A DNA stretch of 62,967 nucleotides, filler included. It is 15 parts of 15 records of this genome, joined end to end, with 100 filler letters (N's around TTAATTAATTAA, not from the genome) between each part and the next. Parts side by side here need not be neighbours in the genome. Positions count along the whole stretch, not along the records: positions 49,693 to 51,884 come from SRR9670534_1424; 14 more parts are not named here. One strand, 5' to 3'. The notes beneath the pieces were generated by a model. The model made no database searches. It saw nothing but the letters and a program-made list of their open reading frames with translations, and was not told where the DNA came from. Within the stretch, counting starts at the first letter, position 1, and each line of letters opens with the position of its first letter. This document shows, one piece after another, positions 3,540 through 59,978 of the stretch. The position numbers and the translations under genes are program-made.

Positions 3540-3639
3540 NNNNNNNNNNNNNNNNNNNNNNNNNNNNNNNNNNNNNNNNNNNNTTAATTAATTAANNNNN
3601 NNNNNNNNNNNNNNNNNNNNNNNNNNNNNNNNNNNNNNN
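3540..3639. other. Artificial contig-joining spacer N44-TTAATTAATTAA-N44 (first of 14)
   Basis: Identical 100-nt spacers with stops in all six frames at 3540-3639, 11590-11689, 17794-17893, 21904-22003, 25918-26017, 30489-30588, 34503-34602, 38816-38915, 44477-44576, 49593-49692, 51885-51984, 54408-54507, 57111-57210 and 60396-60495. Several genes are cut off at them. Confidence 0.97.
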
Positions 3640-21801: not shown

Positions 21802-22303
21802 GTATGCTTTGTTTATTAATTTAATAATTTAACAGTGATTTAACATTAATATTTTAATAATTTTAGTAATCTTAATAATTTTAAATAATTTTAATAATTT
21901 TAANNNNNNNNNNNNNNNNNNNNNNNNNNNNNNNNNNNNNNNNNNNNTTAATTAATTAANNNNNNNNNNNNNNNNNNNNNNNNNNNNNNNNNNNNNNNNN
22001 NNNTTTAAAATTGAATTTAAGGATAATTTAAAACTTTTTAAAATTGATTAAAATTTGAATTTAAATATAATTTAAAAATGAGTTTAAAAATAATTTAAAA
22101 TTTATTTTAAAGACAATTTAAAATTGAATTTAAAGATAATTTAAAACTTTTAAAAATTGAAATTAAAATAATTTAAAATTTAATTTTAGACCAATTTAAA
22201 ATTCAATTTTTAAAATTATTTTAGCATTAAATATAAAGATAATTAAAAACTTTTTTAATTTATTTAAAATTTGAATTTATTAATTGAAAATTGAATTTTA
22301 TAG

Positions 22304-24601
22304 CCTATATGTGTTTCGAAATGTGCCAAAATACAGGATTTTGGTATGTGGGGGTGATGGCACGGTGGGTTGGGTTTTATCCTGTTTGGACAATGTAGCT
22401 CAAGATTCCAAATGTCAAGAGCCCCCTATTGGCATAATACCATTAGGAACTGGGAATGATTTGGCACGTGTTCTTGATTGGGGTGCAGGGTATACTGGAG
22501 AAGATCCACTTGTGCTACTAAAAGAGGTCGCCATAGCTGAAGAAATCAAATTAGACAGGTAAAATAAATTAAAATTTCGATTTAAATATTCTTAAAAGTT
22601 AAAAGTTCAAAATTTTTTAAAAATTTAAAAAGTAAACTTGGGTAAAAAATTGAAAATTAAAGTTAGTGAAATTAAAAAATTAATAAAATTTGAAAATTTA
22701 AATATTGAAAGACTGAAATATAAAAATTTAAAAATTAATTAAATTAAACACATTAAAATTTAAAATTACAATATATTAAAAATTTAAAATTTCAAAAATG
22801 AAATTAAAATTAACTTAAATTCAAATTTAAAACTTTAAAATTAAAATGAAAGATCTTAAAATTAAATTAAAATTTGTTCAAAAATTTGAAAATTTTAAAA
22901 TTGACATTTAATAAAATTAAAAAATTAAGATTAGAATTTCAAATTTAAATTTTTCAAAAAATTTAAATATTCAGATGGGCCACAGTTTTTCGCCACGATG
23001 ACACCAACAAGGATGCCGAATTTCGTAAAAACGTAGCCCAAATGACGGAAACATCACAAACCAATGAGGATACTTCCACCATCTTCGTCATGAACAATTA
23101 CTTTGGCGTTGGCCTGGATGCAGAGCTCTGCCTGCAGTTTCACCTACAGCGCGAGAAAAACCCAGCCAAGTTCAATAGTCGGCTGCACAACAAAGGGGTG
23201 TATTTTTACGTGGGACTGAAAAAGTTCCTGGACAGGAAGAACAAGGATTCTCTGAAGTATGTCCATCTAGAAGTCGATGGAAAAACTGTGGACCTGAAGG
23301 ATTTTCAAGGAATTGCAATTATGAACATCTTAAGGTTGTGAAATGACTATTTTTAGTCGTGGCCATTTCATAACGCACGCGATTCCTTAACTTCTCTATG
23401 ACAAGGCGTTTCTTATGACTTGGCCAGGACTTTTTTGTCGTGGCTATTTCATAACGCACGCGATTCCTTTAATTCTCTATGGGCAGGCGTTCCTTATGAA
23501 TTGGCCACGCCTTTTTTATCGTGGCCATTTCATAACGCACGCCACTCCTTAACCTCTCTATGAGTAGGCGTATCTTATGAATTGGCCACGCCTTTTTCTT
23601 TGTTAATTAGGTAATTGTTATGTGGGTTTTATTGTTAATTAGGGTTTTTGATTGATTTTTAGTTGGGCAAGTGGAAAGGACGCGTGGGGAAGCGAGAAAG
23701 ATGACAGGTTTTCACCCCCAACTCATTATGATGGAAAATTGGAAGTTGTTGGATTGACGGGAACTACACATATGGCTCAAATTCAAACTGGGCTTAGGAG
23801 TGGTATTAGGGTTGCACAGGGTGGACATGTGAGTTTTAAAAAATTTTTAAAACTTTAAAATGATTTAAATTTCAATATTCTTACATTATAACTTAATTTT
23901 TATATCACAATTTAACTTTTTATATTATCTATGGAACATTTTTTAAAAAAATTAGATTTAGATTTAAATTTTTTTAAATTTTTTAATTTTTTTAAAATTA
24001 TTTAAATTTCAATTGTGATGTTATAACTTCATTCAATTCGTTATTGTTTTCATATTTTATGAAATTTAAGAACTTTTTAACAAACTTTTAAAAGTTAAAT
24101 TTGAATTTTAAAAATTTTTAAAATTTTTGAATTTTAATTAAAATAACTTTTTTGTCATTGTTTTAGATAAGAATTAGACTAGATCAAGACACACCTGTAC
24201 AAATAGATGGAGAACCTTGGGTACAGCCTGCGGGTGAATGCACCATCACCAGATCTGCACTTAAGGTGAAAATTTAAATTTTTAAAATTTTTTAAATTTG
24301 ATTTAAATCTTATTTAAATTAGCTTCAATCGATCTCAATTTAACTAATTTTTTTAATTTAGATATATTTTTAAATTTGAATTTAAATATTCTAAAATTGA
24401 TGTGAATTTTGATTAATTAAAATCAAATTTAAATTTTTTAAAAATTTAAATACTTTCAAAATTTAGGCAACAATGTTAAAGAAGTGTAAATCAAAAGTGA
24501 AAAGACGAAATACAGAACCATCCTTGACAGCAGGTGACCCCAAGGTCCCCGAGGACCTGGCTACTGGGGGCGGAAGTGATTTTTCATCATCTCAAGACTA
24601 A
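22304..24601 (+). CDS. DGKQ: Diacylglycerol kinase theta-like, 3' part; exons 22304-22558, 22975-23334, 23663-23828, 24167-24265, 24467-24601
   Basis: [66 protein letters not shown]-terminal ATMLKK..KRRNTEP as in invertebrate DGK-theta. Confidence 0.88.
23356..23598. repeat. Three tandem hairpin units of about 81 bp (DGK intron)
   Basis: GTCGTGGCCATTTCATAACGCACGC...GGCGTTTCTTATGAATTGGCCACG(A/C)C-T6. Confidence 0.9.
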
Positions 24602-24629
24602 AAATTTGCATAATTTTGCTTTCCCTGTA

Positions 24630-24790
24630 GTCGTGGTCATTTCATAACGCACGCTGCTCCTTAACTTCTATATGCGAAGGTGTTTCTTATGAATTGGCCA
24701 CGACTTTTTCTCTTGGCCATTTCATAACGGACGCGACTCCTTAACTTTCCTATGAGAAGGTGTTTCTTATGAATTGGCCACGCCTTTTTC
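24630..24790. repeat. Two more copies of the 81-bp hairpin unit (DGK 3' UTR)
   Basis: Same consensus as 23356-23598. Confidence 0.88.
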
Positions 24791-26074
24791 TTTAGTTTTT
24801 CTCTTTCCTATTGGCTTTTTATTATTAATAAATCATGATTATTATTAATAAATAGGTTGTTTCTGCTTCTTTCTTCTCTCCTAATTAATAATCATATTTT
24901 TATTAATAATTAGTAACAAACATTAATTAATAATTGAAAGACATAGTCAAAATGATGTAATGTTTTTGTTGTCTTGTAATAGTAATGCAAATGTAATGTA
25001 GTAATGCTTTATGTTTTTTATGGAGATTTATGAATTAGCATTTATATTAATAATTATTTGTAAATGATCATTGTTTGTGGCATTATTATTATTAATAAGA
25101 ATTATTATTAATAATAAATCTTTAGCTTTTTTTCAAATGTAGAGGGACATCTTTTTTCAAAATTGCATATAGTTGTGTTTTTGACTTTTTTATGTTAATT
25201 AGTTACATGAGCAGCTGAATTTATTACAATTAATAAAATGTTATTAAAAATTTATTAAAATTTTACTAAATTCATTAAAACTTTTAAAATTTTTTTGAAA
25301 TTTATAAAATTTTATTAAAATCACTAAAATTAACAAAATAATTATGTTTTAAAATTGCATATTAGCTTTGAAATAGTTAAAATTAAATTTTTTTAATTGA
25401 AATTTATATATTATTTATTATTAAAAATTAAATTTACGTAAATTAAAATTTTAATAAAAATTAAACTTAGTAATTAAAATAGTAATAAATTGACTTACAT
25501 TTCTTAAAAAGTATTAAACTATTTAAAAAATTAAACTTGTTTTAAATTTCATTGAAATTTGTACATTTTTTAAAACTAAAATTTAATTTGGACTCAAATT
25601 AATTTAAATTTTAATAATTTTGAAGAAAGTTTTAAATTCAAATAATTTAAATTTAATAATATTAAAATAATTTAAAATTTAATAAATTTTTGAAACTAAA
25701 ACCAATTGCAATTTCAAGAAATGCTTAATTACATTGTTCATATGGTGACATCTTTTTTTGCCATATCCCTTATTTTTGCCACCAAATCAAGAGTGCTGCT
25801 CTTTTATGACTCAATAATAATAATTAATAAAATATTTAAATGCTGGGATATATTCTGCTGGGAATGCACCACATTGTGTATATATGCATATATATATTTA
25901 TTATTATCATTATTGATNNNNNNNNNNNNNNNNNNNNNNNNNNNNNNNNNNNNNNNNNNNNTTAATTAATTAANNNNNNNNNNNNNNNNNNNNNNNNNNN
26001 NNNNNNNNNNNNNNNNNCAGGAATTCTGCCAAGAAACGGATCGTAATAGTAATGATCAAGTTAATACGTTGTAG

Positions 26075-28079
26075 CAATGGCAAGATGAATACCTTATGTG
26101 GAATGCTTCAAAGTTTATGGATCAAGACAGATTTGCAACACCTTCTGAAACTGTTTGGACACCCGACATTGTTCTGTTTAATAGGTAGTAATTTAGTTTT
26201 TTATACTGTATTCCTATTCTTATTGAAAATAAAGTAATATTATTATTAAATACTGCTATGACACAACTTTTTAATACTCTCAGCGTTATATGATACTTGT
26301 TGGTATAATGTTAACTTCTGGAAATATAACGTACACACTTAATAATATCAGTTGAAATAAGTCAATCTCTTAAGATGCACATGGTGGGTTATTACGTAAT
26401 ATATGTAACCTTTAGAGCAGACGAACTACAAAGTATTTCACACAGATTCATTCACTATGCTGCTATATGGTACAATGGCACCGTTACTTGGGCTTTTCCA
26501 GAAATTTATAAAAGTTTTTGCGTGGTCGAAATTGAAATGTTTCCCTTTGATAAGCAGCACTGCATTTTGCAATTTAATTCTTGGTCTTATGCAGTAGATC
26601 AATTCGAAATAGTTGACGTTATTTTTTCAATGCATAACTTCATAGAAAGTGAATGGAGCGTGTTGAACACAACATCATCAATTTTTGTGGCTGATAGATT
26701 TTCCGTTGCTCAAATTGATATCGAAATGGCTAGACATAGCGCCTCATATACTTATGTCATCATCTTCCCCTATATGCTGCTTAGCGTTCTTACCTTATTT
26801 GTGTTTTGGTTGCCGCCAGATTCAGGTGAAAAAATTACACTAAATATTACCCTTCTCCTTGCCTTGACCATATTTTTGCAATTAATTGCTGAGTACATGC
26901 CAAAAGGTTCTGAGAAAATGCCACTAATAGGTAATCTATATTACAATGTACTTATTTATGTTATTGATATTTTTAGTATCAACAAATACTATTTGTCAAA
27001 TAGTATCAATAGTATCAACAAATTTACAGTATTGATATCTTTACGTTTTGCGGCATATGTGCGGCATCTTTTTGTAAAAGTTTTTATAAGCGTATGTGCA
27101 TACCAAATAGGTCATTGCCATATCCGCCATATTTGCTGTGGTTAAACTAACTTTAGTTCAATTTAGAAAGGATGTTGCTTATTAGTATTTGTAGATATCA
27201 AAATGTAAGGTATAAAATTTTTTTTTTGTTTTCGAAAATATTTGGGAAATTGACAGTGATTTGGTAGTACATTATGTACTGTACATGTATTTTGTGTTCT
27301 AAATACTGAAGAAATTACGTACATCATCTATTACCAAGCTTTGATAAAAATATTTTGATATTAACCTGTTAGTAATGATTTAATTGTTAATAATATATTA
27401 TAACATATATTAATTGTTAATAAATGTTATAACAATGCCATTATTAATTAATATTTTAATAACTGACAATGTTGACTACTTTTTAGCCATATTCTTCAAC
27501 ATCAATTTGATTCTCTGCCTACTTTCAGTTATTTTAACAGTATTAATTTTAAACATTCATCACAGAGGACCAAGAATTAAGCCTGTTCCTTATATTCTTA
27601 AAGCCATTTTTATTTCCTTTTTTTCAAGGTTGGTTTTTCTTCATAACTCACAAGAATATTTCCAAAATTTAATTGATGGCATTTCACAAGTCCACAGAGT
27701 TCTTATAGATGAACCTGAAATGCATCAATACGCTGATAACATTGAAGTAATGTCCAAAAATTTGATGACAAGAATAAATGAAAAGGTCTGTGAATCTACC
27801 GAAATAGTTATGGGAAATACCAACAGCAACAACAACTATCTTTATAACAACTACCACCGGGATTTACACAAAATTTTGAAGGATAAAATTCTTTTGGAAA
27901 TTTTGTTTTGTCAAAGACATTTGGTGGAGAAATCTCATTATGAGGAAGTTATTGATGCAAATGTCAACGACTGGCAAATGTTGGCCTTAATTTTTGATCG
28001 CCTATGCTTAATCATCTATATTATTGCAGTTATTGGTTGCACCGCATCTTTATTCCTGAGCGTAAATAGAAATTATTAA
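26075..28079 (+). CDS. Nicotinic acetylcholine receptor-like (Cys-loop) subunit, non-alpha, 5'-truncated; exons 26075-26184, 26416-26930, 27487-28079
   Basis: VWTPDIVLFN, Cys-loop CVVEIEMFPFDKQHC, SWSY, M1-M2 LPPDSGEKITL (cation-type), LNIHHRGP, DWQMLALIFDRL before M4. No vicinal cysteines. Confidence 0.9.
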
Positions 28080-46698: not shown

Positions 46699-48890
46699 AT
46701 GGCAAGAAAAGTTCCAAGATTCCACTACAAGGGGCATACCCTCTCATCTTTGCAACTTAAGGAGGATCTAAGGGTTAATATTAATAATTATCTTAAATTA
46801 TATAATATTAATATGAAATTACATTATATAATATTGCTATTAGAAATTACGAATACGTTTAGTTATCTGAACAAGAAAGAAGATTTTTAAGAGCTTGTGA
46901 AAATGGTGATATACCAACAACTTGCTCCATGCTTCAAGAATTTCCTGCTCTAAATGTTGATGTTGTAGACTGTGTGGGTAGAACTCCGCTAAGAGTTGCA
47001 GTTTATAACGAGCATCTAGAAGTAAGTAGTCAAAAATTTATTAAAATATGTTATCTTTGATATTTAATAATATTGATACTATAGATATTGTTGATGTTAT
47101 AGATAGTTCAACTTTTAATCCAAAGCAGAAGATGTAAAGATACCCAAGGTCTTAAGAATGCCCTTTTACTAGCAGTTGACAGGGGTTATATATCAATAGT
47201 GGAAGAAATTTTAAAAGATCCTTTTTTCACCATATACCCTTCAAAAAATCACTGGTTCATTGATCCATTTCGAAGGAACAACCAAGAAGATCTGCTATCA
47301 TTTTCCGAATATTATTACCCTGATATATCGCCACTAATTTTGGCAGGTCAGAGAAACAATTTTGACTTGGTGCAAATGTTTCTGCAAAAGGAAGAGATTG
47401 AAGAACCGCATGATGTTCATTGTACCTGCAAAGAATATTGCAAAATTTATCATACAATTGATTCTTTAAAACATGCAAAACGACGCCTAAACGCTTACAA
47501 GGCATTATGCAGTGACGCTTACATCTTGCTATCTCACAATTCTTGCAAAGACCCTATAAACAGAGCATTTCATTTGACCAGAAAAATGGAACAAATGGCA
47601 GATGAAGACAAGTCACTGAAGGTTATGTGTTATCATGAAATTCTTATTCTTACTAAAAATACTATTGTCAATAGTCTATTGATCTGCTAAAACAGGTATT
47701 GTATACCCTATTTGAGGAAAAACGCTGATTGAACCTATGAAGCCAACGTTATTAATAAATCAATCGCGTTTTTCCCTCCAGATTTTATTTAGGCATGCAT
47801 ACTATGCATTGCATAGTTCTGTGTAATTACATGAACAAATGACACAATAACATGATTAATAATTATAAGAGAGTATTTACGATAATATATCTAGTTACTG
47901 CTACTAATCTGCTATGGCTTATAGTCTTGTAGTGCACCATGTGCAATGTTGCTTGCAGTACACGTTGTGCAATGTCGCTACTGACAGAATTCCTCAGCAT
48001 GAGCAGTTTTACCACGGCTGTTATTATTATTAATTTAATAAGTTATATTTAATAATTAATATTTAATAATAGTTTATATTATTATCAGAACAAAAAATTA
48101 TAGCAACAATTGCATACCCCAGGTGTGAACATGAAAGGTGAGATGGAAACAGCAGGCTATTGCTGTTATTATTGATAAATTATGCAACAGTTTGCACCTC
48201 AAATATGATTATATTTCATAAATATCTATGACTCATAATTTATTAAATCCATAATAAATTGAAACATTTATATTAAAGCAAATTCATTTAGTATTTACCT
48301 TCTTTGTTAATTATTAAATTCATTTCAAAACTTTATAACTTAAAATTTATTTGTTGTAGACAGAATATCAAAAATTAGCTGCGAATCTGAAACTGTTTGT
48401 AGTCAAACTGATTGATCAATGTCATAGACGTGATGAAATTGCCACCATACTCAATCACCATTCACTACCGGATTCCCGCTTCATATCACAAAGCGCCAGT
48501 CAAGCAACCATACCTGAAGATGTCATCATACACGCCAATACCAGTACCATCAAATATAAGCAGCCTGCTAATACCAAACCATTGGCTTTATTGAAAAAAG
48601 CCATTGATTATGGTCACAAAATGGTATTTGTCTCTTTTACAATTAGTAGGTATATATAATTGCACAGTTTGCATATTTTTGTTTAGTTTGTAGCACATCC
48701 AAACTGTCAGCATATTCTCTCAGAACTTTGGTATCCAAAGTTTGAATCACGGCTAAAATCTAAGAAAATGTCTTCAATTTTTCTAAAATTTCTTGACAAA
48801 AGGGGAACTTTGAAAAGTTATTTGGTAATATTTTGCATAGCTGCGTTTCTACCGCTCCACTTTATATCATGGGTTTCTCCAAAATCTAAC
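46699..48890 (+). CDS. TRPC-family cation channel, 5' part; exons approx. 46699-46773, 46863-47021, 47103-47621, 48360-48623, 48687-48890
   Basis: LSEQERRFLRACENGD and ankyrin repeats, ISPLILAGQRNNF, TRP_2 zinc motif PHDVHCTCKEYC..DSLKHAKRRLNAYKALCS, DPINRAFHL, FVAHPNCQHILSELW. Confidence 0.9.
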
Positions 48891-50106
48891 GTAAGAAGTA
48901 GTTGTTTGTGATATGCACTAGACTTCTGTTATTATTAATTATAATAAATTATTATATAATTTATTAATAATGATAATGTCTGTGAAATGGTCAAAGCTGG
49001 AACTGACAGTTATCATTATTACAACAACTATATTATTTATACAAATTTAAGTTAATGTTATTGTTAAACTGGATATGGATTATGTCTACTATTTACTACA
49101 ACTACAGTAGTACGGTTAAATTATTATTAAAAATAATATTATTAACTAACATCAGTAGTTAATTATAAGTAAGTACCTACTAGTTGATTATAATTAAAAG
49201 TGAGTGATAAGAAATCAAGTCTAATTTGTTACAGATATCTGCTCCGCTCAGATACATTTAAACCGCTGAATTTAATAAATGGTTTATTTATGGTTAATAT
49301 CATTTAATAATATATTAGTAAAAATACATATGTAATATATATGTATCGATCATATAGGTATATTATATATTGATTATTATTAAATGTAGATTAGAATGAT
49401 TTTTCAAAATTATAATAAATAAAAACTATCATACAAAACATATATGATTATTATATTATACTGTATAGTATATAGTATTATATTATAGTATATAGTACCA
49501 TGTAACTCCTTGATTGATTGTTCTTTTTTATTGCAGTGCATATATTATTGATCTTTGCGCTAGCCGTTATTAGTAGTTATATACCCTTACGGNNNNNNNN
49601 NNNNNNNNNNNNNNNNNNNNNNNNNNNNNNNNNNNNTTAATTAATTAANNNNNNNNNNNNNNNNNNNNNNNNNNNNNNNNNNNNNNNNNNNNTAAATTGG
49701 GCACTGCAGAAGAAACATCAATTATAATTATAATTCCTTATCATACAGTAACTTTGACAACAATACCATCTGCACCAACAGCTGATCCTCCATTTATTTG
49801 TAGGAAAAATTTGTACAATACTACTCACATACTATATTATCATTATAATAAATGGTAATGTACAATAAAGTTCAATGGCAATTGTAGCTTGTGACTTTTA
49901 CTAATAAGACCAATCAAGTTTGGACAATATTAACATAATATTGACAAAAAATTGAGCAATTAGATTTGTACTTGTAGTAAGTAACCAGTGTAGTTTCCAC
50001 TCAATTGCTTCACAACATTTCCCATTAATTTTTTATATAAGACAGTTTCCTTTCAATATTGCTACCAGATTGGTTGTAAATTATGCTTGCCCCTTTGGAA
50101 AACAAA

Positions 50107-51336
50107 ATGAAGATGTTTTACCTTTTAGCTGCTCTTTCAATTTTTGGTAATTTAATTTCATTTAAATTGCATCTGAATGAACAGTTATAATTTTAAAAAA
50201 ATTAAATCTCAAAATACTTTAAAATTTTTTAAAATTAAATTTGAATTACTTTAAAAGTTTAATTTCATTTAGCTTTGTAGTTAAATTTTAATTTAATTTT
50301 AAACAGTTTTAATTAATTATCCTTTTTAATTTAGATTTCTAAAAGTATTAACATTTTGTAAATTTAGAATTTCTATGTTGTACAGCAAATGATGACACTA
50401 GAAGATTGTATGATGATTTAATGAGGAATTATAACAATCTTGTTAGACCTGTCAAAAACAGTACAGAAAAAATGGTTGTCAGATTGGGTTTAAAATTATC
50501 TCAACTGCTGGACATTGTAAAATTTTAGTACTTCTAAATATGTAACTTTAATAATTTTACCATACAAACAGGTCAAATTTAAAATTTTATAATAATTTAA
50601 TATTTCAAAATTTTATATATGAATATTATTAATATATTAATGAATGATATAATTATAATTATATTTTTTGAAATATTTATATTAATTTAAATACTATTAT
50701 TAATAATATTTTATTATAGTAATGAATATTATTAATGATTTGCTAGGACGAAAAGAATCAAATAATGACAACAAATATGTGGCTGAGACAGGTATTTATT
50801 AAAAATATTAAAAGGTTATTATTCATTATAAAATATAGCAGGCTAAAAATAGTAACAATAATTATTAACACAGGAATGGCAGGACGTTAAACTGTCATGG
50901 GATCCAACTTTGTATGCTGGCTTAGATGTATTATATGTTCCTTGTGAAAATATTTGGCTACCAGATATTATACTATATAATAAGTATCTATTATTATAAG
51001 AATAATAATATTTCTTTTTATTAATAATAAGCACAATCTGTCCTTGCTAGCACCAATTTTATTTTTTCATTTTATTAATAAATAAAGTTATTAATTAAAT
51101 TAGATTAACTAGATTGAAATTAAATTTCTTTAAAAATATCTATTTATTTTAATTTAATTTAAATCAGTCAACTCATTTCTAAGATATACCATAATTGGGT
51201 CATATTTAAAAAAATATACTTTAAAGTCATGGGATGACTACCAATTGATTTGGAAACCAAAGCACTATGGAGGAGTAACACAAATTTATATGCCAATTGA
51301 TGACTTATGGAATCCTGATATCATGATGCATAATAA
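50107..51336 (+). CDS. Nicotinic acetylcholine receptor subunit (alpha-like N-terminus), 5' part; exons approx. 50107-50146, 50385-50516, 50747-50791, then 50874-50983 or 51227-51336
   Basis: Signal peptide, [64 protein letters not shown]. All exons are too short for the ORF track. Confidence 0.9.
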
Positions 51337-52395
51337 GTAAGGGGATGTAGCTTTTTCTTAATAATCAGCTCATCTAATAACAAACAAAGCCAATTATACT
51401 AACAGCATTAGTTTGCCTTTGACAGAAGGACTTAATTTAGCTAAAAATAATAAAGTTTCTAATTTATTTAATAATACATTGAATAATTTCCTAGCCAAAT
51501 TAAATTACAGAATCACTAATTTCATAAAGAAATATATTTATATTTAGTTAATTATTATTTAATGTTTTAAAATAATTTTTTCTAAATATATTTAAGTTGT
51601 GAATATAAATTATTATGACATTTTATTAATGAAATAAAATCTGATGAAATTTTCAAGTTGGACTTAAAGATTTATTATTTTCTAATATTATAAATGAAAT
51701 TTTGCTGGAATAATTTAAGACTAATTAAAAATGAAATTATATATTAATTTCGATTTATGTACTAATAATGAATTATGAAATAAGGGACTATTTATTTAAG
51801 TACAGAACTAGCAAAAATGTAATCATTAATAATTATTAAGAATTAGAAATTATCATCATGACATGTACTATATAAATTGCATATNNNNNNNNNNNNNNNN
51901 NNNNNNNNNNNNNNNNNNNNNNNNNNNNTTAATTAATTAANNNNNNNNNNNNNNNNNNNNNNNNNNNNNNNNNNNNNNNNNNNNAAAATTTAAAATTTAA
52001 AAATTTAAAATTTAGAAAATTAAAAATTAAAAAAATTAAAAATTAAATAAAACCAAAAATTAATTAAAAAATTTAAAATTTGAATTATTTAAATTTGAAA
52101 TTTAATTAAATTTTTCAGGTAACAGAAGGTTTCACAGTTTTCGCAATTTTCGAACCACTAATCAGCAAGCAAAATGTTTTAAACGTAATTTACCGGATTA
52201 CGGATCATTTCAGCAAAAATTCATCCAAATATTTTATTCAAAAATATCCAGATTTGGTCATATAGGCTTTATTTTGCTTTATTTTTATAAGATTTTCAAG
52301 TGGAGGAAAAGTTTTGGAAATTTTCCCATAGAAATCAATGGGAGAATTTCCAAGACTTTGTCTCCGTTTTCATTATTACGTGTTACCTATCAGGT

Positions 52396-53887
52396 ATGGA
52401 GTTCGCTGATATTTTGACGATATCAGGTATAAAGCAGGTAATTTTCCAAAGACTACCTTTTGGAAAATATCAAGGTAGACTAGCATTGTCAGCACATCAC
52501 GTGGTCTTGTCTAATGTGATTGGATCAATTAATAATGATAATTGCAATGAAAGCAACAGCGGCAGCCTTTACTATGATAATATTGGTGCTATAAATAGTA
52601 ACAATGAATTAACTGATAGCGGAACACAAGGCAGCTATTCTGGGCAAAGCTCACCTACGGAATTTTGGGTAGTTTACATAATTCTTGAAATTTGTGATTT
52701 TAATAAGTTGAATTTTTGAATTTTAGAATGCGTTTTATACTATTACTTAATAAGTTATTTTAATAAAACTATTTCAATAATTTTAATAATTTTTAATATT
52801 TTAATAATTGTTGAAGTATTTTAAATAAACTTAATTTTTAAAATTCTATTTTCTTTTAATTTTTAAAATTTTAATTCAAGTTTGAGTTATTGAAGTTTTT
52901 CAATTTATAATTTTTAATGTTTTAATAATTTTGAAATATTTTAAATAAGCATATTTATAGAATTTAATTAAATTTTAAATATTTTTTAACTATTTTAATA
53001 TGTTAAGAAATTAATATTTCAGTAAGCTTTGCTAATTTAGTAATTTATTAATTGAAGATATTATAATAAATTTTAATAATTCAATAATTTTTGAAATTTT
53101 GCTAATTGAAATGGTTTTCAAAACATTAATGATTTTAATAACATCATTTTATAAAAATTTTCAAGTTGTGAATATTTGTCATTTCTATTATAAAAGTTTA
53201 AATTTTTGAATTGTTGAATTTTTTTAAATTTTCAAATTTTAAAAATTTTTCAAAGTCAATTTTTTTTAATTTTTAAAATTTTAATTCAATTTTGAGTTAG
53301 TCAAGTTTTTCAATTTTTGAACTTTTTATATTTTTTAATTTTTCAATTTTTGAAATTTTTCAATTTTTTAATTTTTAAGTTTTGTTATGATTTTGTATAA
53401 TTTTGTAGATTTTAAATCAAAACATTGACACAGTGGAAAACATTGGTGGAAATACTCTATGCATTAAATGTAAAGACTTTCAAATATTTCACATTAAAAT
53501 CCATGACAGAAATGATCTGGAGAATCTGCAAACTTGTCTAAGAAAATTGATGCTTTTGGATGATGATCTTTTGAAATATCCCTTTTACTATTCACCGAGG
53601 TTTTGTAAGTAATCAAAATTTTGTGATTTTAGATGTTTTAATTTAGATTCAAAATCTATGAAGATGGATACAAATCCTTTCATTTTGAGGAAGAATTTGG
53701 CAATTTTCTATTGAGAACGGATGAATGGCGTTTCACGTTTGTTAACAAAGGATTTAACATTTGTCCCTCGTATCCAGAAATTTCTATTGTTCCCAAAGCT
53801 ATCGGTGATGACATGGTTAAAGAAAGTGCCAAATTTAGACATGGGGGACGCTTTCCTTCTCTATGCTATTTTCATAAAAAGAATGGA
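52396..53887 (+). CDS. MTMR9: Myotubularin-related protein 9, 5' part; exons 52396-52668, 53409-53599, 53647-53887
   Basis: MEFADIL..GRLALSAHHVVLS, IKCKDFQ, YPFYYSPR|FKIYEDG, WRFTFVNKGFNICPSYP..IVPKAI..SAKFRHGGRFPSLCYFHKKNG. Confidence 0.88.
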
Positions 53888-54320
53888 GTAAGATTGCTAT
53901 TTCAGTTTTACATGTAGATGGCGCCATATTGGGATAGATATATTTATTGTGGATTATGTTGTAAACATAGATGGGGCAATGTTTGCGGGATATGAATTTT
54001 TATGCAGTTGTCGCCATAATAGGAAAAACAAAGTTTCAAATTATCCATGTAGATGGCGCCATATTGTAATCCTAAATATTATTATATGGGGACGCTTTCC
54101 CTCTCTATGCTATTTTCATAAAAAATGGAGTAAGATTGATATTTCATTTCTACATGTAGATGGCGCCATATTGGGATATTTTCATTTACATTGTATTTTA
54201 TGTTATGAACCTAGTGGGGGGCATGATTCTAGGTAGCGAATTTTATGCAGATGTCGCCATAATAATAAAAAGAAAGTTTCAAATTATCCATGTAGATGAC
54301 GCCATAGTGTAATCCATATG
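53841..54320. repeat. Tandem duplication of about 245 bp containing the MTMR9 exon end and TAGATGGCGCCAT motifs
   Basis: 53841-54085 is repeated at 54086-54320. Confidence 0.85.
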
Positions 54321-54740: not shown

Positions 54741-55783
54741 TCAAAAATTGATTTGTAAAGAAACAATGAAGCTAACCACTACAGGTAAATGCAATTGAAG
54801 CCATCTTGCAATCAGCAACCTACCAGTTGTGCTACTCTTATCCTGGTCATCTGAATCAGTACTTTCAGTCTCCTCATTTTCTCCATTTGAATTTGCAGAT
54901 GGCCCGTCTTTAGCCTTTGACGTTTCATTTCCTTGCGGATGAAGAACGTTTTTCAACCAATCGTAATGGGCAAGAATGTTAGTAAATTTAACAGATACTT
55001 CGTCTTCTCTAGATATACCAACTAATGAGTATGTTGTTTCACCTTTTACTTGGCAAGCTAATGGAATACCTTTGCCATTCTAAACAACAATTTTACATTG
55101 CGAATTAAATAACTTCTTTCAAGGATGTTTTATAATTCACAATGTCAAATTAAGTTAATCATAAACACGACGTGAAGTAGCGTGATTTAAATAAAACATA
55201 CACACTTTAAAGCTCGAAAGATGGCTGTTCTTATAACTAATTTGGATGTTCCCTTGCTTGGCATTAACACGCTTATTAATGTCATCCATGTAGACAGAGT
55301 TAAATATACCTGTAAAAATTATTAGTGTAGTCACTAAGGTATGGTCATAAACAATCAGTTATACTAATAGATTACACTGGTAAACAAATTTCTTTCAAAA
55401 GTTTCTTCAAAAACATTTTTACCTATATTTGATAGTTATGAATATGTTGCCTATAATAATAAGAAGGACACAACTTTGATCAGATACACTGTATCAATGC
55501 ATGTCATTTTGTTTGTACTATTTCTTTTGTTGACCAGTGTTGTGATTACTATATAAATATAAATATGATATTATTAATTAAGCTATTATAAATTATAACT
55601 TGTATGTTTTTCCCTACCAGGAATATTATTAAAGCCGGAGACAATACAGTTGCTAAGCTGTAAACTGTTTGTATTCTTTGGTAAGCAAATGGGGTTCAGA
55701 GTAGCAGCTAAATTTTGAAAAGGTTCATCTAATTCCAGAACCGCAATATTATACTTGTCACCGCCAATTTTGTAACTGGGATG
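54741..55783 (-). CDS. Trypsin-fold serine protease homolog (non-catalytic), 3' part; exons 55783-55618, 55309-55206, 55079-54741
   Basis: HPSY..YNIAVLELDEP..LNPICLP..CIVSGF, NGKGIPLACQ..YSLVGI..FTNILAHYDWL, then an acidic S/T linker and hydrophobic tail. Junctions are in frame. Confidence 0.75.
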
Positions 55784-56752: not shown

Positions 56753-57110
56753 CATGCTAGTTATAAAAATAAAGACACGACTGGATACGATATTGCTGTT
56801 TTACAATTAAGGAAACCATTTTTCTTAAACAAGAACATCAACACCATTTGTTTGAAAAGGGAGCAGATGTACAGGAAGAATTGGAGATGTTATCTTACTG
56901 GTTTTGGGCATACTGATTTCGATGGCAATGGTTACTGTTTATTGTCACTCTATTACATACCAATTTGCATATCTACATATGTCATAGAATAGTGACTATG
57001 ATAATTATAATATTATGTTATGGAATAAATTACAAAATAATGCTTATGGTAGACTGCTTATTTCATTTTTAGATAGCAATTCTAACAAGGAAGGTCTTTC
57101 AGGTGTTACT
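56753..57110 (+). CDS. Trypsin-like serine protease fragment; exon 56753-56930 and start of the next exon at 57073
   Basis: HASYKNKDTTGYDIAVLQLRKPFFLNKNINTICLK..CYLTGFG with AG/GT boundaries. Confidence 0.78.
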
Positions 57111-57464
57111 NNNNNNNNNNNNNNNNNNNNNNNNNNNNNNNNNNNNNNNNNNNNTTAATTAATTAANNNNNNNNNNNNNNNNNNNNNNNNNNNNNNNNNN
57201 NNNNNNNNNNATCTGAAAAGGTGCAACAAAAATAGCGTTCCGGGTGCCACAACTTATGTGTCTCACTGTACCTAATCGTACATCGAATTTCACTTTCATT
57301 TGTGACGTCATAATAACGTAACTATGTTGCCTATTATGAACGTCGTCAACCCTTATTATTGTATAAATAATATACATGTAACATCATTGCTAGGAAAATG
57401 GGATTAAACTATCGATTTTAACAATGTTATAAATAACCAGAGCAATCCTGATTTCTTGATTTAG

Positions 57465-58873
57465 ACGATTTGGAATATACCATGAAACAGAATAAAACGG
57501 CAGAGAAGAAGATTGCAACTTTGGAACGAAAACTTAGAGGCAGTGAAAACGTTGTTGCAAAGTTGAAAGAAGACGTTAAAAATGTTGGTGAAGCAAGTCG
57601 TCCTGTTAGTGTTTATTCTTCCTTGTCAATGAAAGACGTTGAAAACCGTGAAAAGTTAAAAAGTTACGTTGAACAAGTTCACAATTCCTTGGAGAAATTG
57701 TCGAAGATTGAGCAGCTGAAATTTTCTGGTGAATTATTTGATGTTGATTTTGTCCGAGTTGATCTTGACGAATTTGATGAAACTGTGCAAAAACTTCAAT
57801 GTTTATCATCAAAATTATCCAGTTTAGTACCAGCTATTGAAGGTATACTTACGAAGAAGAGTTCTGAAGCGCAATTGAGCAAATTGTTAACAGATAAAGC
57901 TTCTGCTCTGAATTTAGCAAATACGGAAAAGAAGACGTTACAAGATAAAATCGCCGATTTGGAATTAGAGAAAGGTCAATTGGTTGATAAGGTTGAAGCC
58001 CTTACAAATGAGAATGATTCCGTGAAGAAAGAGGTAATCTCGAAAAGCCAAAATCGAGAAATTCTAAACATTGTTTCATTTTTATAAGTAGATGTCGTTC
58101 TATAGCTTTCAGAATTTCGAAGCAAGCACGACAGTGACGTAACGAAAATGTCGACTTCTTTATCCTCCGAAAAGGAAGCAAAGGATTACTTGAGAGACCA
58201 GTTTTATGCGGCCACTTTGCAGTTGCAGCAAAAAGTCAGTGAATGCGAAAAATTGCAAGGAAGATTGGATGAAAAGGAGAAAAGAAGGAAAAGATGGGAA
58301 GAACGATGTAACCAATCCGCGAACGAATGTATGGAATTGATGGAACAGAAAAAGGTTCTTGAAAAGCAACTGATTGACAGGGACGAGATGAACAAGAATA
58401 TCGTCAATGTTATCGAACAAAAGGATGAACAAATTAGAAAAATGGAGACAGACTTGGGTCAGAAACAAGCGGAATTATTCGCGTCAAAGGAAGTCGTCAA
58501 AGGTTTAACAGCAGCTAATGCCGATAGCGAAAAGAGGGTTCGAAAATTTAATAAATTTTGAAATTCCAAAGAATCTTTTTAGGTAAGAGGAGAAGTTGAT
58601 GCCAAGCAAAAATTAGAAAAGGAACTTGATCAATATAAAAGAAGCGCTTTCAGATCATCAACCGGTGGTACTCCCAGAGAAGGTGGTGACATTTCTGGTG
58701 CTGATGGTGCCGAAGATGCGGAGGACGCGCACACAGCAACCATTGTCAACCCAGAAGAAAGAGAGTTTCAATTTCCTAAGTCTGGAGAAGTTAAATGTCC
58801 AATATGTGGTGTAATTCAACCCGATGTTGAAACCCTGCAAATTCATGCGCAAAATTGCGAACTTCATGATTAA
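57465..58873 (+). CDS. Coiled-coil protein with C-terminal NEMO/optineurin-type CCHC zinc finger, 5'-truncated; exons 57465-58033, 58106-58537, 58583-58873
   Basis: Long heptad regions. The last exon (not in the ORF track) ends CPICGVIQPDVETLQIHAQNC, similar to optineurin [21 protein letters not shown]. Confidence 0.75.
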
Positions 58874-59012
58874 ATGCATCTTTATTCATAAGAAATCATT
58901 TACTCAGAAAATTGTTATTAATAACTTTTGAAACCTATTCTCGATAAGATTTACTAGCTTTTTGGATATCTTTTGTACAATGATTATTAATAAATTCCAT
59001 CCTAGATGTTCC

Positions 59013-59978
59013 ATGGCCCAATCTGTGCAAGAAACTCTTGAAGAACATCTTTGTTGTAAAATTTGTGAAGAATACTCAGAGGGGCAACAAATATGTCCTT
59101 GGTGCAGCATCAGAATTTGCCAATCTTGCATTAACAGAATATCTGCTTCACAGGATCTGATGAAATGCCCATTTTGCCAACAATCAGTTACCAGATTCAT
59201 TCATGATAAAACAATGCAAGAAATTGCTGAAGTTTCAAAAATGTTCTCCTCCAAACTTTCCCTTATCCCTGGCTATGACCATTGTCCAGAACATCAAGCT
59301 CTGAAGAAAATTTTTTGCAGAGTCTGCCAGGACATTGTTTGTGCTGAATGTGTCTATGTTCAGCATCAGGACCATTATTTGGAAACTTTTGCCCTAACTG
59401 AAGACAAATTTTCAGAACTCTTGGGAACAATTAGATACACCAAAGATGCTATTGATGTCACCATTTCTGACCTATGCAAAGCTAGGAAAGAATTAAAAAA
59501 TTATTTAAGTAAGTTGGTTTTTGATCGTGAAAAGTTGTCACAATTGGAACATGGTTTGCAGGGTAAAAAATGTAAAAGTTATCAAGAAACATGGTTTTTT
59601 CTTGAAAATTATGACCTTGTAGTGGAATTGGCAAACATCAAGGAGAAATGCATGAAAATCATGGAGGAATGGTTTCTAAATTCAGCCAGAAATAGTGAAC
59701 AAGAACAAATTTTGTTAAATATCTTGCTGAATAACAAATCTGCTGAATTATCAGTTGCTCTTTCAGAAAATGAGCTTTTAAATGAAAAAAATTCAAACTT
59801 AAATTTTGAAGTAAATAAGTTGAAGATTTTGGTTAAAAATTTGGTTGAAGAGAATAATTTGTTAAAGGAAGAACTTCCACATAGAAACAAGCTTTTATGT
59901 CCCATTTGTGGAGCTAAAAAACCAGATTTTGATTCATTGGATCTTCATACTAGAAGCTGTGGAATTATTGACGATTAA
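59013..59978 (+). CDS. TRIM-like E3 ligase: RING, B-box2, coiled coil, C-terminal CCHC zinc finger; single exon
   Basis: CKIC..CPWC..CQSC..CPFC RING, CPEH..FCRVCQDIVCAEC..H..H B-box, C-terminal CPICGAKKPDFDSLDLHTRSC. Confidence 0.85.
   Translation: MAQSVQETLEEHLCCKICEEYSEGQQICPWCSIRICQSCINRISASQDLMKCPFCQQSVTRFIHDKTMQEIAEVSKMFSSKLSLIPGYDHCPEHQALKKIFCRVCQDIVCAECVYVQHQDHYLETFALTEDKFSELLGTIRYTKDAIDVTISDLCKARKELKNYLSKLVFDREKLSQLEHGLQGKKCKSYQETWFFLENYDLVVELANIKEKCMKIMEEWFLNSARNSEQEQILLNILLNNKSAELSVALSENELLNEKNSNLNFEVNKLKILVKNLVEENNLLKEELPHRNKLLCPICGAKKPDFDSLDLHTRSCGIIDD

Follow-up and report, generated by a model that had tools for sequence, protein, structure and literature searches.

The window analysed here is a stretch of 62,967 nt made of 15 contigs of 2.2–8 kb, joined by identical spacers (44 N, TTAATTAATTAA, 44 N). 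The 14 spacers span window positions 3540 to 60495 (those at 49593–49692 and 51885–51984 are examples); because a spacer separates contigs, the 'genes' on its two sides are not genomic neighbours. The source genome is that of an animal and is AT-rich; genes for a nuclear receptor, a TRP channel and a myotubularin are present in the window, and a search of its whole length against Rfam gave no matches. The receptor gene described below lies on the smallest of the 15 contigs, which has a GC content of 0.22 and is bounded by spacers on both sides. The features of this contig are as follows.

49693–51884 (+): contig carrying the 5′ part of the receptor gene, delimited by the spacer map
50107–50146 (+): putative exon 1, read from the sequence, with ATG, hydrophobic signal-peptide start and GT donor, phase 1
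50368–50516 (+): exon 2, 149 nt, coding for the N-terminal helix and the first part of the ligand-binding domain (PF02931, AG/GT)
50747–50791 (+): exon 3, 45 nt, phase 0 to 0, loop D strand, from the sequence and related loci
50874–50983 (+): exon 4a (canonical), 110 nt, phase 0 to 2; the alpha1-Tyr93 column holds Tyr
50984–51226 (+): intron between 4a and 4b, 243 nt, AT-rich, GC 0.165
51227–51336 (+): exon 4b (diverged), 110 nt, phase 0 to 2; the alpha1-Tyr93 column holds His
51246–51248 (+): TGA, in frame if 4a and 4b are both included
51337–51884 (+): start of the next intron, GC 0.192, ended by the contig end, with no receptor-like ORF

All exon boundaries of the gene are of the AG/GT type. 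Exon 2 matches positions 2–40 of the PF02931 profile (E 1.2e-7, 31.8 bits), and exon 3, present as a single copy in the contig, agrees with exon 3 of related loci at 12–13 of its 15 residues. The GC content of the exons is 0.30–0.36 (0.336 in 4a and 0.345 in 4b) versus 0.11–0.19 in the introns and the 3′ flank. Past 4b the contig runs on for another 548 nt, and exon 5 would lie beyond its end; it was not found on any other contig of the window, where a Cys-loop motif occurs just once more, in a different receptor gene. That second Cys-loop receptor fragment (26075–26930, +) has a single 110-nt exon 4 (26075–26184) with Phe at the loop A column, and a large exon encoding the Cys loop, TM1 and TM2, with no vicinal Cys at the place expected for loop C.

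The contig placed before the receptor contig has exons of a TRP-type cation channel (46863–48911, +) with ankyrin repeats and a TRP_2 domain (PF08344, E 1.1e-16). A myotubularin-like phosphatase exon is located at 53642–54236 (+; PF06602, E 2.2e-21), and an ORF ∼300 nt past it repeats the same short peptide, which may reflect a local duplication. Trypsin-type serine protease-like ORFs were recognized by eye at 54741–55079 (−), 55586–55783 (−) and 56753–56992 (+) of one contig, and the ORFs of region 57452–59978 (+) include long ones of coiled-coil type and one with a B-box (PF00643, E 1.6e-6); two ORFs of this region close with a short zinc-finger-like motif of Cys and His residues that is similar in both. 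On contig 22004–25917, TCCTTAAC occurs as four exact copies spread over 1.4 kb (23384–24745, +), a hint of a dispersed or tandem repeat.

Exons 4a and 4b are open in the frame set by exon 3, with two spare bases left at the end of each (phase 2), and are flanked by AG at 50872–50873 and GT at 50984–50985 (4a) and by AG at 51225–51226 and GT at 51337–51338 (4b). The first-pass annotation, made from the letters alone, had described two consecutive open 110-nt exons with AG/GT ends, running from phase 0 to phase 2 and encoding the same segment of a ligand-binding domain; coordinates, splice ends and shared identity are all borne out. In comparison with the Pfam profile Neur_chan_LBD (PF02931, cut-off 26 bits), the ORF with 4a matched positions 53–92 (E 3.9e-12, 46.5 bits) and the ORF with 4b positions 55–92 (E 1.2e-9, 38.4 bits). 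Overlapping matches so far above chance show the two exons to be homologous versions of a single segment. Each aligns ungapped with residues 59/60–94 of the Torpedo alpha chain (2bg9_A), and likewise with numerous other nicotinic subunits; the best solved-structure matches of both are nicotinic subunits, and the segment extends from the beta2-beta3 'MIR' loop through loop A. Judged by its ligand-binding domain, the predicted product of the gene is a Cys-loop (pentameric) ligand-gated ion channel of the nicotinic type, whose Cys-x13-Cys loop and four transmembrane helices (PF02932) would be encoded 3′ of exon 4, past the contig end at 51884. The two exons share 61 of 110 nt and 14 of 36 residues; 13 of these 14 residues fall at columns strongly conserved among 174 homologous segments.

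Since 110 is not a multiple of 3, the frame is broken when both exons or neither of them is included. The earlier claim that inclusion of both would shift the frame is confirmed by the TGA at 51246–51248, and skipping of both would be expected to put exon 5 out of frame. Equal length and phase, canonical splice sites, homology and a frame broken by joint inclusion, features expected of mutually exclusive exons, are all found in this pair. Exon 4 is likewise 110 nt long in the second receptor gene of the window and in all 80 related loci.

Several observations bear on whether 4b is maintained as a coding exon. Its GC content of 0.345 stands against 0.165 and 0.192 in its two flanks. Between 4a and 4b codon position 2 is the most conserved, with 26 of 36 positions identical versus 17 at position 1 and 16 at position 3. 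An open frame of 36 codons was found at none of the 135 start positions in the 243-nt intron, at none in introns 1 and 2, and at 25 of the 440 start positions in the 3′ flank. We also simulated drift by mutating 4a to the observed 49 nt differences with the base composition of the introns (20,000 runs): 3.8% of the runs remained free of stop codons and 0.5% retained at least 14 identical residues, the two outcomes coincided in 5 of the 20,000 runs, and all 13 family-conserved residues were kept in none of them. The simulation presumes a 4a-like ancestor and divergence in place; indels were left out, and their inclusion would make decay look less likely still. Composition and simulation favour the interpretation of 4b as a selected coding exon, and the view of the duplication as old and selected, proposed earlier from the strong DNA divergence and the persistence of key residues, gains support.

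We consider it probable that 4a and 4b form a functional pair of mutually exclusive exons. Exon 4 of a nicotinic-type subunit gene would have been duplicated in tandem long ago; the spliceosome would join exon 3, through its donor after 50791, either to 4a or to 4b, and the chosen copy would then be joined to a common exon 5 beyond the contig end. The choice would be enforced by the reading frame: a receptor would be encoded by the either-or products only, and the remaining frameshifted transcripts would probably be lost to nonsense-mediated decay. With 4b used in place of 4a, and with the two exons excluding each other in vivo, the isoforms would differ at 22 of the 36 residues, spread over the beta2-beta3 loop region and loop A, and the difference would include a change from Tyr to His at the agonist-pocket position of loop A.

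A reading that we regard as unlikely, yet the strongest of the competing ones, is that the receptor is made from 4a alone, 4b being an unused leftover of the duplication or else a 'poison' exon, included rarely and breaking the frame. The AAG acceptor of 4b, a weaker one than the CAG of 4a, agrees with it and is a point against an either-or pair. The lower Pfam score of 4b (38.4 versus 46.5 bits) agrees with it too, and so do two residues at the loop A end of 4b, Met in column 34 and His in column 35, which depart from the consensus of the 174 segments. Still, an unconstrained copy should lose its frame, its length, its composition and its family-conserved residues, while 4b has exon-level GC and an open frame with a residue set that drift reproduced so rarely; a poison exon, for its part, has no need to keep the residues of a ligand-binding domain. 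Conservation of second exon-4 copies in related genes, described next, also counts against this reading.

Metagenome contigs were scanned with a profile, and an HMM built from the 36-residue segment was then run over the best 80 of 524 relatives; with at least 1200 nt downstream, 59 of these loci were assessable. In three of the 59 (L004, L005 and L013) another 110-nt copy with AG/GT ends follows further downstream, on the strand of the first and with scores of 51–64 bits, and all remaining extra HMM hits in the related loci are at or below 11.3 bits. By similarity to 4a these three loci rank 1, 2 and 7 of 59; the rank-sum chance is ∼3e-4, but L005 and L013 represent one lineage and the scores differ little (the top locus has 62.8 bits and rank 25 has 59.3). 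Locus L010 is a counter-example, having an exon 4 with 25 of 36 residues identical to 4a and no second copy within its 2658 nt downstream.

The most informative of the three loci is L013, in which tblastn delineates one alpha-type gene made of exon 2, exon 3, 4a, 4b and a single exon 5, followed by the Cys loop, a loop C with vicinal Cys and TM1-3; no sequence similar to exons 1–3 lies between its exon-4 copies. On the opposite strand upstream (L013 2–1142, −) there is a second nicotinic-type receptor gene, so that receptors are clustered on this contig. Locus L005 carries the L013 gene of a related organism, and the two are counted as one lineage and not as two independent cases. They agree, without gaps, at 103 of 110 nt in 4a and at 90 of 110 nt in 4b, versus 438 of 786 columns (about 56%), with 147 gap columns, in the intron between the copies and 109 of 194 columns past 4b; of the codons that differ in 4b, 11 are synonymous and 7 are not. 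By this comparison, the second exon-4 copy, situated between exon 3 and a common exon 5, is under purifying selection in at least one lineage. The architecture of L013 is the one that the first-pass annotation had proposed for the window gene, to which it may extend by analogy.

The tandem layout of the window gene is similar to that of L004, L005 and L013: in each the 110-nt exon with AG/GT ends is duplicated, the first copy being canonical and the second diverged. The copies are 645–1026 nt apart in these loci versus 243 nt in the window gene. The same tandem pair is seen at the protein level in P0003 and P0004 (Tegillarca granosa KAJ8305004.1). The second copies of these five pairs match 4b at only about 13–18 of 36 residues (the count for L013 was made by eye). 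At the loop A column all five first copies carry Tyr; among the second copies, those of L005, L013, P0003 and P0004 carry Phe and that of L004 carries Tyr.

Protein databases provided no orthologue of the window gene. A word-index search with 4a produced six proteins, the best of them 63–64% identical and none orthologous, and the same type of search gave no match with exon 4b and none at E ≤ 10 with exon 2. An exhaustive search with 4b yielded 527 receptor-like proteins (E ≤ 1e-3) with a best single-stretch identity of 57% and without an orthologue; from a scan of metagenome contigs with 4b peptides we obtained 155 pattern matches, none of which was confirmed. Among the matches listed, 16 of 154 proteins have the segment twice, and in four of the 16 (P0004, P0009, P0032 and P0126) the gap is at most 35 residues, a sign that a short intron between tandem exons may have been read through. 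Two transcript-derived alpha-type subunits, P0151 and P0152, have an identical early extracellular domain and differ from the loop C region on; they may represent alternative exon sets or close paralogues.

By identity to 4b, exon 4a ranks 117th of 143 segments, so that 4a and 4b are not mutual nearest relatives. Trees of the exons built on 36 columns lack resolution: the first P0004 copy is the partner of 4a (local support 0.81) and P0042 that of 4b (0.79), and no single clade unites the second copies of the various loci. Given the absence of a common clade, and with 4a and 4b not being nearest relatives, orthology of 4b with the conserved second copies elsewhere is unproven. These relations invite the thought that 4b is an exon 4 that arrived recently from another paralogue, intact because it is young, its divergence from 4a then being that between two genes. 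Many other receptors share more residues with exon 4b (up to 20 of 36) than 4a does (14 of 36), and families of Cys-loop receptors can be large and tandemly arrayed, as reported in PMC6896357. We find this origin quite improbable nonetheless: exact AG/GT boundaries and phase would have to travel along with the exon, which would have to enter the right intron in the right direction; a donor paralogue was not found, the exon 4 of the other receptor in the window being identical to 4b at just 10 of 36 residues; and the order of a canonical first and a diverged second copy recurs in L004 and in L005/L013. That the 2.2-kb contig is an assembly chimera, two paralogous genes joined within a low-complexity intron, has the smallest probability of all, for although the assembly is highly fragmented (contigs of 2–8 kb) and the joining intron is repeat-like with 16% GC, no exon 3-like sequence is present in the 243 nt upstream of 4b and the tandem pair recurs in the independent assemblies L004, L005 and L013 and in proteins P0003 and P0004. 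The related suggestion that 4b is an exon of a separate downstream paralogue was dropped, as nothing similar to exons 1–3 lies between 4a and 4b.

To return to mutually exclusive splicing of 4a and 4b, the means of exclusion were sought in the sequence around the pair. Exon 4a combines a CAG acceptor with a GTATCT donor, and exon 4b an AAG acceptor with a GTAAGG donor; one weaker site in each exon may fit a regulated choice. The GTATCT donor has only a partial likeness to the U12 donor consensus. U12-type splicing was rejected, the TCCTTRAY branch motif being absent from 49693–51884; the 10 matches to this motif in the window, where 10.3 are expected by chance, are all outside the receptor contig. 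The RNA fold of 50792–51226 is not significant (z −0.56, equalled by 24 of 100 shuffles), and for a docking/selector mechanism there is no evidence, the inverted repeats of the region being AT-rich low-complexity sequence only. Steric exclusion was set aside because an intron of 243 nt would be too long for it. Alternative C-terminal blocks of the unc-49 type were rejected, the copies being only 243 nt apart. Either-or splicing under the frame rule, by which any other product would be out of frame, is the most likely mechanism.

The ungapped alignment to alpha1 residues 59/60–94 places alignment column 35 at alpha1 residue 93. Tyr93 of alpha1 is a residue of the principal-face aromatic agonist pocket. 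This column holds Tyr in 4a and His in 4b, just as had been noticed at the outset. His is found there in 3 of the 174 segments and also in the 'Ligand-gated ion channel 4' of Bulinus truncatus (KAH9503287.1, P0115). According to the account in PMC4569296, two spider subunits have His at the loop A Tyr column and are classed by its authors as non-alpha. The spider subunit CsnACh1 (PMC4569296) and the Bulinus truncatus protein thus resemble 4b, with the difference that in these two His is fixed gene-wide, whereas in the window gene it would be switched by splicing. An isoform with 4b could be altered in its response to agonists, as the first-pass annotation supposed, provided that the subunit offers the principal face. 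The vicinal Cys of loop C, by which a subunit of the alpha type is recognized, would be encoded past the contig end; the related gene of L013 has them, its orthology with the window gene being unproven.

Alternative duplicated exons are a known route by which invertebrates diversify Cys-loop receptors, insecticide targets included. In the sources cited here, the documented sites of such exons are loop D, loops E and B with the Cys loop, and TM2 (PMC8505678, PMC2064938, PMC10906874). The first-pass annotation had compared the window pair with exons 4/4′ of insect alpha4, taking them to cover the same segment, and had offered deep conservation or convergence as the explanation. As described in PMC2064938, PMC10906874 and PMC8505678, exons 4/4′ encode loop E, loop B and the Cys loop, while the window pair ends at loop A; the segments differ, and with them the alternative of conservation or convergence falls away. 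What the two systems share, on these accounts (Lansdell and Millar 2000, cited in PMC2064938; also PMC2045683 and PMC10906874), is the tandem duplication of extracellular-domain exons in a nicotinic subunit gene; the insect pair has transcript proof, whereas the window pair is known from genomic sequence alone, and the common exon number 4 is a coincidence of numbering. The alpha6 genes of insects and ticks are reported to have alternative exons 3a/3b at loop D and 8a/b/c at TM2 (PMC8505678, PMC13578988). By these reports, 3a/3b correspond to the 45-nt loop D exon, which directly precedes the exon duplicated in the window gene; alpha6 thus duplicates a different exon, exon 3 of the window gene being single. 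A limited search of open-access full text returned no description of alternative loop A exons of a nicotinic subunit.

We tentatively raise a broader possibility, itself rather doubtful: a group of invertebrate nicotinic genes may share a conserved and so far undescribed switch at the MIR loop and loop A, in which the principal-face Tyr is replaced by Phe or His and one gene gives both a binding subunit and a weakly binding or non-binding 'structural' one. The window pair would then be a member of an old switch and not a private duplication. The practical value of the exon pair is modest until transcripts are shown. If true, a switch of loop A and the main immunogenic loop would be a new site of alternative splicing in this family, one acting directly on the principal agonist-binding face.
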